Shown here: positions 1 through 12,355 of the stretch, piece by piece | Position numbering within the stretch: position 1 is the stretch's first letter | Layout: every line of letters begins with the position of its first letter | Program-made: the position numbers and the translations under genes | Origin: a virus | Lineage: Duplodnaviria > Heunggongvirae > Uroviricota > Caudoviricetes | DNA length: 12,384 nt | Reading direction: 5' to 3' (one strand) | IMG/VR virus record: IMGVR_UViG_2713896773_000005 | Notes under the pieces: model-generated | What the model saw: the letters and a program-made list of their open reading frames with translations, nothing else | The model's database searches: none | What the model was told of the DNA's origin: nothing

Positions 1-104
1 ACCTGCTCATAGCCATCACCGAACTGCGCAGCGCGCACCGTTTGACTATATTCAATCGCCCCAGCACCGAGCTGCGAGCGCCAGCTGTATGTTTCAACTG
101 CCAT
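1..104 (-). CDS. Hypothetical protein, N-terminal fragment (gene runs off the left edge); possibly the next tail gene
   Basis: ATG at 104..102 preceded by GGAG (113..110) with 5-nt spacing, directly downstream of the terminator at 116..139. Frame is open to the window edge (MAVETYSWRSQLGAGAIEYSQTVRAAQFGDGYEQ...). GC content returns to the level of the structural genes. Only 34 codons visible and a second minus-strand frame is also open, so this is weak. Confidence 0.3.
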   Translation of the reverse strand, partial: MAVETYSWRSQLGAGAIEYSQTVRAAQFGDGYEQ

Positions 105-115
105 ATTTGCTCCAT

Positions 116-139
116 AAAAAAAGCCACCCGAAGGTGGCT
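116..139 (-). terminator. Rho-independent terminator (minus-strand orientation)
   Basis: Perfect 7-bp stem agccacc (122..128) / ggtggct (133..139) with loop cgaa, which is a UUCG tetraloop on the minus-strand RNA. It is followed on the minus strand by a T7 run (plus-strand A7 at 116..122). No T-run on the plus side. Confidence 0.6.
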
Positions 140-267
140 ACTGTCTGAATATCAGGATGTTACAAATCAAAATACCTGGTTATGTTGTGGATTCAGCCCG
201 CCAGTGGTGGGCACTGGCGCATTAATTGCCGACGGTGCGGCTGATGGCCTCGGTATAACAGGAGTTT

Positions 268-498
268 ATGATGAGCTTTAACAAAGAAGACCAGCAGGAT
301 GAAGCCTTAGCGTTTTTATTAGCTGTTGCCACTGTCGAATCAGGTGATGCTGGAGCTTTTCGCAAGCGCGTTACTGAGTATATGACGAAGGCCTACGGTG
401 GAGATACATCAAAAATGACGATGCAAGAGCAAGGTCGTGCCGAGGCGGTATCCAAATTGTACGCCAGGGCTGATAACATCTACCATCGCATCAAATAA
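268..498 (+). CDS. Hypothetical small acidic protein, 76 aa (75 aa if the second ATG is used)
   Basis: Strong SD AGGAG at 259..263 upstream of ATGATG at 268..273; stop TAA at 496..498, followed by a plus-strand terminator. The only convincing plus-strand gene in the window. No family recognised. Confidence 0.5.
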   Translation: MMSFNKEDQQDEALAFLLAVATVESGDAGAFRKRVTEYMTKAYGGDTSKMTMQEQGRAEAVSKLYARADNIYHRIK

Positions 499-504
499 TG
501 CTTT

Positions 505-527
505 GCCCCGGTTAAGCCGGGGTTTTC
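505..527 (+). terminator. Rho-independent terminator for the 268..498 gene, overlapping the 3' end of the convergent minus-strand gene
   Basis: Stem ccccgg (506..511) / ccgggg (517..522), loop ttaag, then TTTT (523..526). In the minus orientation the hairpin is not followed by a T-run, so it is unidirectional. Confidence 0.55.
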
Positions 528-769
528 AATCCGGCAATTGCCTTACTGGCATATTCTTTGGCGCGTGCTTCGACTTCGGCAAAAGAGCTGCCTGGATTGA
601 AATCCTCCTGATAGATAAACACCAGTTCATGAGGCGCATTGATTTGCTCAAGCTTGCAAACTGTAATTTTGGTTCTGACAGTCTTTATCATTTTAATTTC
701 TAAATCTGGATCGAAGCTTACAGATTCAAATCGCGAACCCATTTCAGGGAATCCTACAGTCATTTCCAT
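512..769 (-). CDS. Hypothetical protein, 85 aa
   Basis: ATG at 769..767 with SD AGGAGA (plus-strand tctcct at 774..779). Stop TAA at 514..512 lies inside the convergent terminator hairpin. Low-GC composition. No family recognised. Confidence 0.55.
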   Translation of the reverse strand: MEMTVGFPEMGSRFESVSFDPDLEIKMIKTVRTKITVCKLEQINAPHELVFIYQEDFNPGSSFAEVEARAKEYASKAIAGLKTPA

Positions 770-800
770 AACGTTCTCCTGCCTCTCGGCTACAGATATA

Positions 801-823
801 AAAAAGCCCCGCGTATGCGAGGC
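801..823 (-). terminator. Putative intrinsic terminator after the 855..1376 gene
   Basis: Hairpin gcccc-gcg / cgc-a-gggc (806..823) with one bulged base and a 4-nt loop, followed on the minus strand by T5 (plus-strand aaaaa at 801..805). Lies 31 nt downstream of the stop at 855. Confidence 0.45.
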
Positions 824-854
824 TCGTGTTCGGGTGGGGTAGATTGTGCTGGAC

Positions 855-1376
855 CTAACATCCGCGAATAATCTCGGTGTAATATTTCAAAAACTCGACT
901 CTAACCTGAGGTGGTAATCCTTTGGCTATCGCCTGTATCTGATTATCATGTTTTTTGATTAACTCATCTCCTTCAAGGCCATTAGCTGAAGAAAAAATTC
1001 TGCAAGCCAGATCTGCAACAGCGCCACGATTTAACTCCAGTGCGCCGTCCTCAATGGTGTAATAGCTGGAAGGAATCAGCGATTCAGACGGCAAAGACTG
1101 GATTTTATTCAAATCGCTACCGCAGTGCTTACATTTTATCGCCTCTTTCTTTACAAGCTCAGCGCAGTATGGGCATCGTCTCATGTCATTTTCGGTGATC
1201 TGCCTTTCTTCAATATCCCGCGCGTTACCACTTATTAAAAGAACGTGTATGATGGCAACTATAAACAACAAGCAGCCATACAACCACCAAGCGCCGAATG
1301 ATCGGCCCTTGCTTTTAGCGATGGCGGCAGGTATCAGCCCCAGAAATGCAGCTATGATGAAAAATTCCACTATCAT
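855..1376 (-). CDS. Membrane-anchored zinc-ribbon protein, 173 aa, function unknown
   Basis: Translation shows two hydrophobic helices at the N-terminus (IVEFFIIAAFLGLIPAAIA and WWLYGCLLFIVAIIHVLLISG) separated by a basic loop KSKGRS. A C-P-Y-C ... C-K-H-C four-cysteine zinc-ribbon motif follows, then a soluble domain of about 90 aa. ATG at 1376 with GAGGGG just upstream; stop TAG at 857..855. About 40% GC. Confidence 0.6.
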   Translation of the reverse strand: MIVEFFIIAAFLGLIPAAIAKSKGRSFGAWWLYGCLLFIVAIIHVLLISGNARDIEERQITENDMRRCPYCAELVKKEAIKCKHCGSDLNKIQSLPSESLIPSSYYTIEDGALELNRGAVADLACRIFSSANGLEGDELIKKHDNQIQAIAKGLPPQVRVEFLKYYTEIIRGC

Positions 1377-1431
1377 CCCCTCATTTATTATGGTGTTACC
1401 ATGATAACTAGGGGATGTCCGAATGTAACGC

Positions 1432-1656
1432 TCAAAAGGTGTTGGCGACTGCCTTTAGCGTACCCTTCGCAGTGGCAATGGCAAGCTCTTCAACTTGCTT
1501 AAGGGTCAGGTCTAGCTGATATGGCAGGTTAACAGGGACACTTGCAATGCGAGTGCAATCGTCTGGGCCATAGAAAGTCACGAAGGCACTGATCGCCTTT
1601 CCATTTTCGTTGGCATCCCAAACAACATCAGAGACCTTTACTTCTGCAATTTTCAT
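1432..1656 (-). CDS. Hypothetical protein, 74 aa, translationally coupled to the tape measure gene
   Basis: ATG at 1656..1654 overlaps the tape measure stop codon by 1 nt (TAATG). Frame open to stop at 1432. No family recognised. Confidence 0.55.
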   Translation of the reverse strand: MKIAEVKVSDVVWDANENGKAISAFVTFYGPDDCTRIASVPVNLPYQLDLTLKQVEELAIATAKGTLKAVANTF

Positions 1657-4600
1657 TAGTATTTCCCTCTAACGGCATTCCACAGCGGAGTGCCTGGTTT
1701 TCTTACTTGAGTATTAATGGTGTCAATCATTGCATCGTTGAGTTGCCTGCCAATAGCTGCAGCATTTGCTGAGCCACCTGTATTGGCCTGTCCACCTGAA
1801 CCAATGTTTATGTCACCAAAACTGACGCTGATAATTGGCACACCAGAGTCTGCCGCCCCAGCCTGATTTCCCCCAACAAGCCCACCAGAAGCGTAACGGC
1901 CTAAATTACCGTTGTTCATTAGACGATATAGGTTATCTACGCCGATCCGCCTAGTGGCTTCTTTGGTGAAAACGAACTCATCTTTATGCACGATGCCTGC
2001 GGGTTCATATTTACCGCCCGCACCTGTGTAACCACCGGAATCAAACAGGCTAACTCCAGAGTTTGCAGCGCTGGCATATGCTCCGCCTGGCGTGTTGCCA
2101 CCAGCACTACCGCTAATCCACCCCATCGCAGCCTGAACTGCATAGGCGACCAGTAACCGGTTTGTCACCTCTGCGATCATCTTTAACATGGATTTGGTGA
2201 ATTCTTTGAGGCTAGCCGTCCCAGTTGTAACCAAACTAGTCAACATGTCGGAAAGGCCACTGAACGTTGACCCCGCCACATTGCGCATTGCTTCAAATGT
2301 GTTTGTTGCGGAGTCGGCATAATCAGCCCATCCGCGTTTTGCACCAGCCTGCCAGTTACTGCGAAGTTCGTCTTCCTTCCGGTATGTCTCTTCCTGCTGA
2401 GCCAAAACTTTTTTTTGCGCGTCAGGATTGAAGGCATAGGTCTCAGACAAACGCTGACGTGTTGCCGCCCGCTCAGCCTCCCTGGTTGAAGTCCCTGCAG
2501 CTGCCGCATCAATTTCTGCTTGCTTAGCTGCCTGCTGCTGAGCAAATTTGGTCGCCTGATCGGCAAGAGAATTCAGTTTCTGCTGCCTTGCAATCTGATC
2601 GCCCAATGCTGCATTAATATCAGCCTGCGCGAGAAGTTTATCCTTATTGGCGAGCAGTGACTTCTCATCAATGGTAAGCGCACGGCCTTTTGGATCATTT
2701 GCCGTTGCCTCGAGAATACTGATTTTGGATATCAGTTCCCATTGCTGCTTACGTTGCTGACTGATTACATCGTTAATATCACGATGTTCTTGAAGCGTTT
2801 TTAGCTGCGCTTGCAGAGCTAAAGTCTCAGCATTGTAAGTGTCGGTTGAGCGATCACCTGCAGACACCTTAACGGCTGGGGTTTTGGGCGTTTTATTTGG
2901 GTGAAACTGCTTGTTTATCGCGTCAACTGCCTGTTGGCGTTGTTGCTCACTCCATTTATCAGGAGCGAGTGCGACATTTTTCCATAGCTCAGACAGAGCT
3001 TTAGTGCGTTTCTCCTGCCAGGTCGCTGACTGTTCAAGGATACGATTCCGATAAATCAGTGCATCGGTACGTTTATTGTCGGCATCGGCCGCCTGTTTTT
3101 CTGACTCATTAATTTCCTTTTGAGTGGATACTTCTTTTTGCTTTAGGCCGATCTGCTCCTTCAGGGATGCTATAGCCGCCAACTGAGCCTTGCGTCGTGA
3201 GTCATACTCCTGATCGCTACTGCTCGTATCATAGCTGTAGCCATACCCCATCCGTTGTCTTTCTGGTAGGAGAGCCTTCTCATACTCAGCAAGCTGCGCC
3301 TGCATCTTCTTAAGCATATCGGCAGGCGCTTCTGGACGACCGATATCAAGAAGGCTGTCCCACATCCCCTTGATGGCGTCACCAGTCGCTTTAGCCGCTT
3401 TCTCGATAAAGCCCATATTGTCGAGGATTTGCTGGCTGCGCTTCTGCTCAGCCTCGCTATAGGCTTTGGCTGCCGCCTCTGCCGCGCCCTCTTTATCACC
3501 CCGCCGTTCCAGCGCCGAAATATAGTCGTATTGGGATGAGGTGAGGAAATGGAGCGTCGAATTAAGATCTTCCGCTGCCTTGGTTGGGCTTGCATACAGT
3601 TTTTGGAAGTTCTTAATGGTGCTATCAACAGATTGGCCAGTGGCCTCCTGCATCGCCAGTGCTGCCCGGGTAACTGTTTCGAGCTGCTCCGTTTTAAATG
3701 TACCTGCTCCAACCACCTCTGCGAGTGTTCGAGCGGCAGCCGCAACCTTTCCACTGGAGCCGCCAATTTTTTGAGCCATGTCCGACAACTGGCTCGCAGA
3801 ACTTGCCGAATAATTACCCGTGAGTATCAGCTGCTTATTAAACTCACTGGCTTCCTGGCTGCCTTTGTACCAGGCAACAGCCATAGCACCAAGACCAACC
3901 ACTAAGCCGCCAATCCCTACTGTCACCGGATTAATGAAACCAATCAGGGTGCGTAAATAATCGCCTACACCAGTCAGCGCGCCCTTGACCCCACCGAACT
4001 GGTCTTTAATCTGCCCGCCCTGTTGCAGAAGGATCAGGAACGGCGACTGACCGCCAGCCAGCTGCGTGGCGATATCGGTGAATTGCGCCGGAAGCGTGCG
4101 CATTGCTGCGCTGTACTGACCAACGGAGATTCCAGCGCGCCGGGCAGCAGCTTCCTGCCGGGATAGCGCCTCTGGTAGTACGTCAGCGACACCAGAGAGG
4201 CGCTCACGCGTCTGGTTAAGGATTGTGTTGAAGTGCTCGAACTGAGCACCGTTAATGCGCCCAGCTTCGAAATGTTCCACCAGCTGTGCGTGCTGTTCAT
4301 CCAACGAATTGAACGCGCGGATAGTCGGGTCGATGGATCCAAGAAGGTTCTTTAACGCTGCGGACTGCTTTTCTGCCGCCTGGGTAGCGGCTAATTCAGC
4401 CTGAGCGCGCGCCGCGGCTTCTCCGGTGTCGGTCAGCTTGAGGCGGGTGTCATCCAGGATTTTGTTGTATGCCTGAAAGGTATCGGTATCCAGGAAACCT
4501 TTGGCCTGGAATTTCCGCAGCGATTCTTGCTGCTCATCCAGGCGGTTTAAGGCCTTGGTAACCGGGTCGATATTCTCCAGCAGCCCTTTGAGCGCGTTCT

Positions 4601-4787
4601 GCTGCTCCTTGAGTCCTTCGCTGCCTTGCTTCGCAGATTCAGCGCCAGCGCGAAACACGCTATTCAGATCATCTGCTTTATCTACAGCACCGGCCGCCGC
4701 CTGGCCGAGTTTATCCAGTTCGTTGCTGGCTGTTTTCAGGTCAGAAACATCGGCCCGCAAAGTAATCGAGGCGATCTGGTCTGTCAT
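1656..4787 (-). CDS. Tail tape measure protein, 1043 aa
   Basis: Longest ORF in the window, immediately downstream of the chaperone G/GT pair. N-terminal part is Ala/Gln/Glu/Leu-rich with a duplicated motif of about 55 aa. A central hydrophobic glycine-rich segment (LIGFINPVTVGIGGLVVGLGAMAVAWY) and a Gly/Ser/Ala-rich C-terminus follow. Start ATG at 4787..4785 overlaps the stop of the upstream T frame (TAATG). Confidence 0.9.
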   Translation of the reverse strand: MTDQIASITLRADVSDLKTASNELDKLGQAAAGAVDKADDLNSVFRAGAESAKQGSEGLKEQQNALKGLLENIDPVTKALNRLDEQQESLRKFQAKGFLDTDTFQAYNKILDDTRLKLTDTGEAAARAQAELAATQAAEKQSAALKNLLGSIDPTIRAFNSLDEQHAQLVEHFEAGRINGAQFEHFNTILNQTRERLSGVADVLPEALSRQEAAARRAGISVGQYSAAMRTLPAQFTDIATQLAGGQSPFLILLQQGGQIKDQFGGVKGALTGVGDYLRTLIGFINPVTVGIGGLVVGLGAMAVAWYKGSQEASEFNKQLILTGNYSASSASQLSDMAQKIGGSSGKVAAAARTLAEVVGAGTFKTEQLETVTRAALAMQEATGQSVDSTIKNFQKLYASPTKAAEDLNSTLHFLTSSQYDYISALERRGDKEGAAEAAAKAYSEAEQKRSQQILDNMGFIEKAAKATGDAIKGMWDSLLDIGRPEAPADMLKKMQAQLAEYEKALLPERQRMGYGYSYDTSSSDQEYDSRRKAQLAAIASLKEQIGLKQKEVSTQKEINESEKQAADADNKRTDALIYRNRILEQSATWQEKRTKALSELWKNVALAPDKWSEQQRQQAVDAINKQFHPNKTPKTPAVKVSAGDRSTDTYNAETLALQAQLKTLQEHRDINDVISQQRKQQWELISKISILEATANDPKGRALTIDEKSLLANKDKLLAQADINAALGDQIARQQKLNSLADQATKFAQQQAAKQAEIDAAAAGTSTREAERAATRQRLSETYAFNPDAQKKVLAQQEETYRKEDELRSNWQAGAKRGWADYADSATNTFEAMRNVAGSTFSGLSDMLTSLVTTGTASLKEFTKSMLKMIAEVTNRLLVAYAVQAAMGWISGSAGGNTPGGAYASAANSGVSLFDSGGYTGAGGKYEPAGIVHKDEFVFTKEATRRIGVDNLYRLMNNGNLGRYASGGLVGGNQAGAADSGVPIISVSFGDINIGSGGQANTGGSANAAAIGRQLNDAMIDTINTQVRKPGTPLWNAVRGKY

Positions 4788-5469: not shown

Positions 5470-6000
5470 TTAGTTAATGCCGGGCAGATACATCTGGACT
5501 TCGTCGGCGACGCGATCCCGGGCTGCATGTAATAGCTGCTTGCGACCACCAACACCCCACTTGGCCATTTGGCTGGCACACTGGCTAATTGCCTTGGTTT
5601 CAGTGTTGATGATGTGGTCGATTTTGTTCAGGCGGGACATGGCACTGATACCAAGACGCACCACTGTTCTAAATACTTCGTACACTTCAATCTCAAACTC
5701 TGGCTTTATCCAGGCGGCATAGCGGATTGCCAGAAGTTCAATGCCCCATGCACCACTTTGATCACCGCCTTTTATAACCTTAAGTGGTTGATTTTGTTCC
5801 GAAGCACTTTTTAGTGCTTTGGATTTTAGCGCTTTAACGAAGCGTTTGATCTGCGCGCTACGCAGGAAGACGCTGGGCCTTTGTGACTCAGTAGCCTCTC
5901 CGTTAGCTACCGCTGCCGCATGAAGATCGTTAAGACTGTACCGGCCTTCGTCATCAACGCGGACGGAGACCCCATTCACTGAGACGGTTGGGTGATTCAT
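5470..6000 (-). CDS. KilA-N domain-like protein (putative DNA-binding or antirepressor-like insert), 176 aa
   Basis: Translation contains ...GGDQSGAWGIELLAIRYAAWIKPEFEIEVYEVF..., which matches my recollection of the conserved KilA-N/APSES core (G-x-W ... LA ... A-W-I-x-P-E-F). ATG at 6000..5998 with an AAGG-type SD. Flanked by terminator hairpins on both sides. Confidence 0.55.
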   Translation of the reverse strand: MNHPTVSVNGVSVRVDDEGRYSLNDLHAAAVANGEATESQRPSVFLRSAQIKRFVKALKSKALKSASEQNQPLKVIKGGDQSGAWGIELLAIRYAAWIKPEFEIEVYEVFRTVVRLGISAMSRLNKIDHIINTETKAISQCASQMAKWGVGGRKQLLHAARDRVADEVQMYLPGIN

Positions 6001-6216: not shown

Positions 6217-7149
6217 TTAGCTGACAGTAACGGTGCATGCCGCCGACGTTAGGGTCTTGCCTGCGGCGTCAGTGACTTCGCAGGTATAAACGCCAGCATC
6301 ACCGGATGAGACAGACGAAATGTTGAACGTCGAGGCGGTTTTGCCCGGAATTGCGGAGCTTCCTTTCTTCCACACGTAGGTGTAAGGGGCTGAGCCGCCT
6401 TGCATAACGACGGCTAAATCGAGCGCATCTCCAACACTAACTGCTTTGGTTGATGGCAGATCAGTCAGGAACGCCAGCGGCGTAACGGATGAATCGGCGA
6501 TCGGGTAAATCTGCATATCCGATTCGAAGTTCATGCGCGCTTCGTTGCTTTCCACGGCGTTGATTTCGGTCTTAGGCACCTTCTGGAAAGACACTTTGGC
6601 AGAGTAATAACGGTCCGCTTTGCCGCGCGGGTTATGGAACCACACAGCAGTGGTGTCGCTGGATTCGTCAAGTTCACTCAGACGCTTGTAAATTGCCAGC
6701 AGCGGATCGTGCGCGAAGGTGTAGACCTGCACCACGGCGTTTTTGAAGGTCGGGATGGTACGGGCCTTATCGTCTTCAAGGAACTGCACGCTGATGGTCT
6801 GCTGGTCACCACCCTCTGTGGAGAGGGTCATCACCTGCGGCATCGTGATCCACGTGTCGATTTTACGCAGCGTGCCCGCGCCAGTGCCTGCCGGGAATTT
6901 GGTGGTGTCAGAGGTATCGAACGAATCCAGCACGATTTTGGTACCGGCTACGGATTTAACGCGCAGCACCATATTATCGAGTTTTAGCCAGCCGGAGCTC
7001 ACCTGCACTACGTCGCCCGCCAGGATGCCAGCGGCAGATGCAACAGTCAGTTCGCATTCAGTAGCGTTAGAGGCAGCGGTAAAGGTGATGGGAGCCTGAT
7101 AGGCCTTGGCCACGTTAACACGCGAGCCGTTAGGGATTGCGAATGCCAT
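6217..7149 (-). CDS. Major tail (tube) protein with C-terminal Ig-like domain, 310 aa
   Basis: Sits between the tail-terminator-like gene and the G/GT chaperones, the canonical position. SD AGGAG upstream of ATG at 7149..7147. C-terminal ~80 aa (...PYTYVWKKGSSAIPGKTASTFNISSVSSGDAGVYTCEVTDAAGKTLTSAACTVTVS) has an immunoglobulin-like pattern (W ... DAGVYTC ...). Confidence 0.75.
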   Translation of the reverse strand: MAFAIPNGSRVNVAKAYQAPITFTAASNATECELTVASAAGILAGDVVQVSSGWLKLDNMVLRVKSVAGTKIVLDSFDTSDTTKFPAGTGAGTLRKIDTWITMPQVMTLSTEGGDQQTISVQFLEDDKARTIPTFKNAVVQVYTFAHDPLLAIYKRLSELDESSDTTAVWFHNPRGKADRYYSAKVSFQKVPKTEINAVESNEARMNFESDMQIYPIADSSVTPLAFLTDLPSTKAVSVGDALDLAVVMQGGSAPYTYVWKKGSSAIPGKTASTFNISSVSSGDAGVYTCEVTDAAGKTLTSAACTVTVS

Positions 7150-11890: not shown

Positions 11891-12355
11891 TTAGAGAATT
11901 TGCCAGTCATCAGCCAAGACGTCGGTTTGGCTTGGTGCCCAAGGCACGCGAGCGCCATTTGGGTATGGCATAGCACCATTGCCCGGCACAGGATAAATTA
12001 AACGAATGTACGGCAGGTCCACAGATGGCGACTGCTGGACCAGCTCAAGCCACAGGCCCTTGCCGTTCCAGCCTGCGCGGGTGACACGCTTGCCTGATTT
12101 CAGGGCTTCGACAGCCAGTCCGAAGCTAAGCCCCGCCACTGGTCGGTAGGCTTTGTCGAACACATCTTTCGGACTCCAGCTCACATACCCGTTGAAGCGA
12201 TCGGTGTTTGGCTTTCCGCCATCCAGATACTCGACGAGATAACCTTCATCACTTCCGTTTTCGTCACTTGGTAACTCCCAACCACGAAAGTCGTTATATG
12301 CCAGACGGGTCATCGGGTAAGCATTGATGAGCTTCACGCCAATATGTTGAGTCAT
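11891..12355 (-). CDS. DUF2829 / Tad2-like domain protein with an N-terminal extension, 154 aa
   Basis: C-terminal half (...FGLAVEALKSGKRVTRAGWNGKGLWLEL ... ARVPWAPSQTDVLADDWQIL) carries both motifs I recall as diagnostic of DUF2829, the family that includes Thoeris anti-defence protein Tad2. The N-terminal ~77 aa is unrecognised. ATG at 12355 with a weak AAGG SD. Confidence 0.6.
   Translation of the reverse strand: MTQHIGVKLINAYPMTRLAYNDFRGWELPSDENGSDEGYLVEYLDGGKPNTDRFNGYVSWSPKDVFDKAYRPVAGLSFGLAVEALKSGKRVTRAGWNGKGLWLELVQQSPSVDLPYIRLIYPVPGNGAMPYPNGARVPWAPSQTDVLADDWQIL

Follow-up and report, generated by a model that had tools for sequence, protein, structure and literature searches.

Phage operons can carry inserted, independent transcription units known as morons (reviewed in PMC3594210). 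A cassette of this kind, consisting of two facing genes, was annotated in phage HK97 as early as 2000; the GenBank record lists Gp22 as "moron product", Gp23 as "reverse moron product", and two putative terminators. Prophage accessory loci that are embedded antisense, have their own promoter and are expressed in lysogens have also been described (PMC7067206), and in the Staphylococcus aureus phage 80alpha an antisense-nested gene with its own promoter is tied to the phage life cycle (PMC11087260). Here we analyze a small convergent gene pair in a stretch of 12,384 nucleotides (nt) from the Caudoviricetes (IMG/VR virus record IMGVR_UViG_2713896773_000005), the whole of which is referred to below as the window. 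Judged by its sequence, this pair belongs to the same type of two-gene moron cassette as genes 22 and 23 of HK97 and sits in the late tail operon of a prophage of lambdoid type; its two terminators lie at places matching those of HK97.

Since the layout of the cassette was already annotated in HK97, the finding as first described is a rediscovery. Three things are added. One is a testable logic, in which the reverse gene would be active in the lysogen and the forward gene during lytic growth only, with head-on late transcription acting as the switch. Another is that, throughout a protein superfamily, the coding sequence of the forward gene contains the terminator of the reverse gene. The third is a conserved structured 5' leader that is common to many unrelated prophage cargo genes, and that is more worth following than the cassette itself.

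The facing genes and their HK97 relatives

We refer to the reverse gene, on the plus strand, as R, and to the forward gene, on the minus strand, as F. The features of the pair are the following (aa, amino acids; SD, Shine-Dalgarno sequence).

271..498, plus strand: R, 75 aa, homologue of HK97 gp23; an alternative ATG lies at 268 (76 aa)
505..527, plus strand: hairpin followed by UUUU, the R terminator; GenBank annotates the homologous HK97 site as a putative terminator
512..769, minus strand: F, 85 aa, homologue of HK97 gp22
770..795, minus strand: left end of the cassette, a conserved junction (minus-strand sequence AGCCGAGAGGCAGGAGAACGTT) that includes the SD of F

The two facing genes reported by the first-pass annotation (268-498 on the plus strand and 512-769 on the minus strand) exist as described. 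The ratio of nonsynonymous (dN) to synonymous (dS) substitution rates, calculated against five relatives, is low for both open reading frames (ORFs), being 0.02-0.05 for R and 0.13-0.27 for F, and both are therefore genuine genes under purifying selection. The R protein more likely has 75 aa and starts at 271, because the SD (GGAG, 261-264) is spaced 6 nt from the ATG at 271 and just 3 nt from that at 268, and because HK97 and every other relative have the second ATG only. The convergent pair with its hairpin was present in 7/7 contexts examined (the window, HK97, and the loci L002, L003, L004, L005/6 and L007), although L002 is identical to the window over positions 100-800 and is hence not an independent case.

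The hairpin between the genes has a stem formed by 506-511 and 517-522, an optional G505.U523 pair, a loop at 512-516 and UUUU at 523-526, and it folds with -16.2 kcal/mol (z = -2.1). On the minus strand the hairpin (505-523) is followed by CAAAGC, which contains no U-tract, and it is therefore unidirectional, serving the plus strand, as had been proposed. The loop contains the TAA stop codon of F (complement of 512-514) and the stem the three codons before it, which encode T-P-A; this bears out the earlier statement that the stem includes the last codons of F. A simple terminator scanner did not call the 505-527 site, because the stem is extended by the G.U pair, leaving just 4 T. Compared with what is expected of an intrinsic terminator, the minus-strand site at 122-139 is complete, and the plus-strand site at 505-527 has a strong hairpin with only four U residues.

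The window (100-792) and HK97 (AF069529 / NC_002167; 14452-15145) share 90% nucleotide identity over both genes and both flanks. The F and R proteins are 93% and 95% identical, respectively, to their HK97 counterparts, the orientation and the middle hairpin are equal, and in both cases the late-strand terminator downstream adjoins the next tail gene. There are also two differences. The HK97 cassette is located between genes I and J, whereas the copy in the window lies after the tape-measure side and before M/L-like genes. In addition, gp23 (86 aa) and gp22 (120 aa) of HK97 are longer and overlap by 123 nt, the short forms being present in all other relatives. A comparison of HK97 (L001, 4309-4431) with the window (496-530) explains the longer proteins by a 2-bp insertion before the gp23 stop (ATCAAAGTTAAT versus ATCAAATAAT) together with a TAA-to-CAA change in the hairpin loop; the long forms represent a derived state or else stem from an artefact of sequencing or annotation. 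Altogether, the F and R pair was found at three places, namely between I and J (HK97, L003 and L007), after the tape-measure/H gene (the window and L002), and in a P22-like ant/arc region (L004). Given these three different genome positions, the cassette is mobile, and a location other than that between I and J does not set a copy apart from the HK97 type; mosaicism is the rule in lambdoid phages.

F has no promoter of its own and is a late gene. The homology among copies starts just ~25 nt upstream of its ATG, at the conserved junction AGCCGAGAGGCAGGAGA, no promoter-like site is present between 770 and 860 on the minus strand, and the strong terminator at 825..804 lies directly upstream in the window; for these reasons F is part of the late tail operon. 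The left junction (AGCCGAGAGGCAGGAGAnnnTTATG) is also kept between cassettes with different cargo, in many of the loci L012-L131, where, read as "AERQE.V", it precedes other cargo ORFs. In many of these loci the forward-side ORF begins with the same 11 residues, MTLEQRVEALE, and continues with unrelated sequence. Such starts, together with the conserved flanks, suggest that cargo may be exchanged by recombination between the flanks.

The F superfamily, equivalent to phrog_11851, comprises 179 clusters from Enterobacter, Citrobacter, Salmonella, E. coli and Kluyvera, all annotated as "hypothetical". The F protein of the window has a weak match to phrog_11851, the only one for either protein in PHROGs; neither F nor R matched anything in Pfam, NCBIfam or PADLOC. 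The AlphaFold2 model of F is poor (predicted local distance difference test score, pLDDT, of 59), with confidence in the C-terminal helix alone, whereas R is modelled as a three-helix bundle (pLDDT 80) that gave no significant fold match in the PDB or BFVD. A phmmer search of R against 1.8 billion representatives returned just seven small relatives, and homologues of R at 43-50% identity keep the full length of the protein. No membrane segment and no recognisable enzymatic fold was seen in F or R.

The leader RNA and the module ahead of the reverse gene

The region upstream of R (115-267) is a conserved module in which a terminator for the late strand is followed by a promoter-like region and a leader of 78 nt. 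Its features are the following.

115..139, minus strand: late-strand intrinsic terminator with stem 122-128/133-139, UUCG loop and seven U residues (U7) at 115-121
150..162, plus strand: TATCAGGATGTTA, an IHF-like core, conserved, and an exact pattern match to the IHF core consensus WATCARNNNNTTR
174..186, plus strand: CCTGGT and TATGTT, conserved in all copies, the latter (181-186) being the presumed -10 element (TAnnnT)
191..267, plus strand: 78-nt 5' leader RNA with helices P2 and P3, a possible P1 pseudoknot, and the SD GGAG at 261-264

The module alignment shows the late-strand terminator to be conserved, and the annotations of HK97 and ES18 list it as putative; its GC-rich stem has 7 bp (-14.7 kcal/mol, z = -2.8). 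This terminator was called by the scanner and, with its U7 tract, is indeed the next minus-strand terminator beyond 512. The TATCAGGNTGTTR block (150-162) is conserved across the module family and overlies the -35 position of the presumed promoter; IHF may bind here. The conserved block ahead of R would have promoter activity, and transcription of R probably starts at about 192-194.

The leader is structured in the plus-strand RNA, and the loops of its two hairpins are conserved. P2 is formed by 199-206 and 212-219 with a GUGGG loop, P3 by 229-235 and 248-253 with C233 bulged, and a P1 pseudoknot may form between 193-198 (UCAGCC) and 239-244 (GGCUGA) in the P3 loop. Across 100 distinct leaders that were aligned, P2 shows exchanges of U-A to C-G, A-U to G-C, G-C to A-U and U.G to A-U as well as one whole-helix swap, and P3 covaries, with 95.5% of cells paired versus 30-48% in slid controls. 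P1 varies via G.U-compatible changes only, and we consider this pseudoknot possible. Pairs of the G.U type greatly outnumber those of the A.C type (79:1 in P2 and 54:12 in P3), and the structure therefore belongs to the plus-strand RNA, i.e., the mRNA of R. A minus-strand small RNA ending at the 122-139 terminator was considered and rejected, since the helices tolerate G.U and not A.C.

A covariance model of the leader (R1) finds one copy each in the window and in the HK97, HK022, HK633, ES18 and mEp506 loci, and scores 59-93 bits on the independent copies of HK022, HK633, ES18 and mEp506. Copies lie at 4091-4167 in L001, 1591-1666 in L008, 1592-1669 in L009, 1579-1656 in L010 and 1344-1420 in L011. 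Rfam 15 gave no match to the leader, at E-values up to 1, anywhere in positions 1-1700.

The ~150 nt upstream of R are far more widespread than R itself. BLAST searches detected the module without genes 22/23 in HK022, ES18, HK633, mEp213, mEp506 and SPN3UB, where it precedes other reverse genes, such as HK022 gp23 "srb", ES18 gp25, HK633 gp65 and a gene for a DUF2594 protein. Of 5426 complete E. coli genomes, only 75 gave a BLAST match. Two motif scans of IMG/VR returned at least 120 contigs each, and among the matches listed there are ~20 unrelated small ORF families behind the module, always with the ATG ~74-78 nt after the motif. A scan of genomic contigs yielded ~17 loci with real matches, in Enterobacteriaceae only, most other hits being chance 18-mer matches in unrelated GC-rich genomes. 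Three further ideas were discarded. Common ancestry of the reverse cargo proteins found no support in hhalign, which detected no relation save one weak match (31% probability); a role in cold shock, based on a leader ahead of ynaE/ydfK, was dropped as the Rac and Qin prophages of K-12 contain no copy; and CTGTCTGAATATCAG is not a LexA box, its spacing being CTG-N9-CAG instead of CTG-N10-CAG.

Going by Rfam and the searchable literature, both the leader and the terminator-promoter-leader unit with interchangeable cargo are undescribed. We tentatively suggest, while giving this view less than even weight, that the leader is an undescribed structured cis-regulatory RNA which, together with the IHF-like promoter and the late-strand terminator, may constitute a portable antisense expression module that places ~20 unrelated small-protein cargos (among the matches listed) in the late operons of Enterobacteriaceae prophages under one common signal. 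If the leader is a regulatory RNA, this would provide a handle on the timing of many lysogenic-conversion or exclusion proteins in prophages of Enterobacter, Citrobacter, Salmonella and E. coli.

Proposed expression of the cassette within the late operon

The window corresponds to the late, structural part of a lambdoid prophage. Its structural genes all lie on the minus strand and include those for the major capsid protein, head-tail connectors and a DUF1799 protein; Pfam matches of the tail genes confirm the late tail operon context. The features around the cassette are listed here.

1..104, minus strand: 5' part of the next late tail gene, with its ATG at the complement of 102-104; equivalent to the L002 coding sequence 19655-20005
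804..825, minus strand: intrinsic terminator of the upstream zinc-ribbon moron (-15.5 kcal/mol, z = -4.3)
855..1429, minus strand: neighbouring independent moron, with a promoter-like site at 1429..1401, a gene for a 173-aa protein, and the terminator at 825..804
1656-4787, minus strand: tape-measure protein, 1043 aa
5092-5430, minus strand: tail assembly chaperone
6217-7149, minus strand: tail tube protein with an Ig domain

The cassette sits between the tape-measure gene, a 74-aa ORF and the zinc-ribbon moron on one side, and M/L-like tail genes on the other. The 173-aa product of the neighbouring moron (855-1376) is a membrane protein with a hydrophobic region near its N-terminus and a zinc ribbon (PF13248; phrog_8436). 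The terminator at 804..825 separates F from transcription that is not antiterminated.

Positions 100-800 of the window are 100% identical to an E. coli chromosomal prophage (L002) that adjoins tonB/yciI. Beyond the cassette, L002 contains tail genes of the M/L/K/I/J type, the next one being annotated as "phage tail protein" and followed by that for minor tail protein L. A Q-type antiterminator gene lies upstream, on the same strand as all structural genes. In the window, a KilA-N domain ORF (5470-6000, minus strand) is inserted between the gene for the tail tube and that for the tail assembly chaperone. At this position L002, though otherwise similar, carries other genes, annotated as "tail tip fiber protein" and hypothetical protein, and the window is therefore a mosaic relative of L002 and not the same prophage. 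The only Rfam match in the window, a weak one to the fluoride riboswitch model (11905-11983, minus strand; 17.1 bits, the gathering score being 34, and E = 0.79), falls inside a DUF2829-type ORF and is almost certainly due to chance.

The late transcript of lambdoid phages is antiterminated by Q. We infer that F would be made only as part of this antiterminated late transcript, which would ignore the hairpins at 804-825, 505-523 and 122-139 and continue into the tail genes. R would be a separate unit with a weak conserved promoter (-10 TATGTT, 181-186), a structured leader and an end at 505-527, and would be expressed while the prophage is quiescent. During lytic growth, late transcription would run head-on and antisense through R, shutting it down, and in the lysogen the 122-139 terminator would keep minus-strand transcription that is not antiterminated out of the tail genes. 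This logic changes one earlier claim, according to which transcription of F might read through antisense to the 76-aa gene. The geometry stands, as any minus-strand RNA that extends past 512 is antisense to the whole of that gene. The source proposed for it does not: given that F has no promoter and belongs to the late operon, the antisense over R would be a by-product of antiterminated late transcription that runs on into the tail genes, and no F-specific message ending at 116-139 would be involved.

On balance we favour this overall mechanism, in which R is on in the lysogen from its own promoter, F is expressed late only, and late transcription silences R. It should be noted that several points weigh against it. 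A simple sigma-70 scan calls no promoter upstream of R, where the -35 element is poor. The R terminator has four U residues only and a modest z-score, and read-through may occur. No function could be assigned to F or R from family searches, models of the proteins or fold searches with R, and our literature searches on "reverse moron", HK97 gp22/gp23, HK022 "srb" and RNA-seq of HK97 lysogens retrieved no functional data. Finally, the score of 66.7 bits that model R1 gives to the window copy of the leader (191-267) is, like those of its closest relatives, partly by construction, as these copies are in the seed set.

Other explanations for the arrangement have to be weighed with the evolution of the two genes. 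The first-pass annotation had suggested a regulator/effector or toxin/antitoxin-like pair. A functionally coupled pair, i.e., an effector and its inhibitor as in Tha/Ith or a toxin/antitoxin-like couple, would imply that the late protein neutralises the lysogen protein and that the antisense reinforces the switch. It is in keeping with the co-occurrence of both families in all seven contexts and at three genome positions, with the conserved convergent overlap and shared hairpin, and with the precedent in phage 80alpha. However, in a comparison of the window with L004 (4001-4517), R is nearly identical (dN 0.006, dS 0.31) and F is divergent (dN 0.285, dS saturated). This contrast points to recombination with a breakpoint at the shared hairpin, and F and R are therefore not co-evolving. 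The F superfamily is found opposite at least eight unrelated R families in other prophages, and R cargos without an F partner exist (in HK633, and those adjoining a 254-aa gene). F and R lack membrane segments and recognisable enzymatic folds, and no toxin, antitoxin or defence family was matched; in particular, Pfam, NCBIfam, PADLOC and the R fold search gave no match to type II toxin or antitoxin domain families. The layout also differs from the co-directional operon with a shared autoregulated promoter of type II systems, in that the genes are convergent and F is promoterless. A type I system, with a small hydrophobic peptide and a non-coding antisense RNA, does not fit either, because F and R both encode conserved proteins of 75-85 aa that look soluble and are subject to purifying selection. 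We therefore regard a coupled pair as quite improbable, and the earlier suggestion of such a pair was not sustained.

The same recombination between F and R would suit an explanation without any interplay, in which unrelated accessory genes were joined at conserved junctions, the hairpin is merely the R terminator and the overlap with the stop codon reflects compaction. The cargo is exchanged between cassette ends that are both conserved, and lambdoid phages are generally mosaic. Yet throughout the F superfamily the R terminator lies within the coding sequence of F (L103, L107, L062 and others). In the large branch of F, the palindrome GCGGCC...GGCCGC encodes the conserved AAQxQAA motif of F, and F continues antisense over the 3' end of R for 4-70 nt, and in the branch of the window CCCCGG...CCGGGG encodes KTPA-stop at the homologous position. 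This points to a long-standing co-residence of F- and R-type genes and not to an accident; moreover, the geometry makes head-on late transcription across R unavoidable. We consider the absence of any interplay unlikely. The convergent 3' ends overlap by 4-70 nt in many sister cassettes, and the R terminator with its four U is weak, which could mean that the R transcript is mainly an antisense RNA that reads through into F and the upstream late genes and excludes superinfecting relatives, as documented for STnc6030 of prophage BTP1 (PMC7067206). The low dN/dS of R and the full-length homologues at 43-50% identity argue that the protein is the selected product, and conservation of the hairpin and U-tract suggests that termination matters, so that we find this the least probable of the explanations.

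Comparison with known systems

The cassette resembles morons in the sense of Hendrix and Juhala in being an extra block between genes that are adjacent in relatives, flanked by terminators, with a lower G+C content (0.44-0.49 versus 0.50-0.54). The reverse unit has its own promoter-like region, and other cargo is present behind the common module in HK022, mEp506 and ES18. The cassette differs from them in that F has no promoter of its own, so that only R would fit the full definition. DUF1327 proteins, e.g., ES18 gp24, resemble F in their forward-gene position opposite a reverse gene with the shared leader, in length, and in a similar C-terminal "Y-E-x-E-A-x-x-x-A" helix; however, the profile-profile match to F is weak (probability 55%), and the F protein of the window gave no match to the Pfam family DUF1327 (PF07041).

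The put RNA of HK022, a nascent two-stem RNA that modifies RNA polymerase (PMC9378689), shares with the leader a length of ~70-78 nt, a location at the 5' end of a lambdoid transcript, and two stem-loops. This resemblance is formal only. No sequence similarity to put was seen, as the sole match of the module in HK022 (14019-14141) lies ahead of gene 23 and none is found at PL/PR; the role of an antiterminator would be ill-suited to a unit in which a single small ORF is followed by a terminator.

Two further parallels concern the expression logic. The Tha-Ith noncontiguous operon of 80alpha likewise has a gene with its own promoter nested antisense in a phage operon and coupled to lysogeny and lysis (PMC11087260), although that operon is the cI operon and its antisense gene is a proven inhibitor, whereas F and R have no sequence or fold relationship to Tha-Ith and do not co-evolve. 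STnc6030 and the other antisense loci of Salmonella prophages also have their own promoters, lie antisense to structural genes and are expressed in lysogens (PMC7067206); the R transcript differs from them in that it encodes a strongly conserved protein and has its terminator after 230 nt. By analogy, the logic proposed here for R and F appears to match that shown experimentally for these antisense-embedded prophage loci (PMC7067206, PMC11087260).

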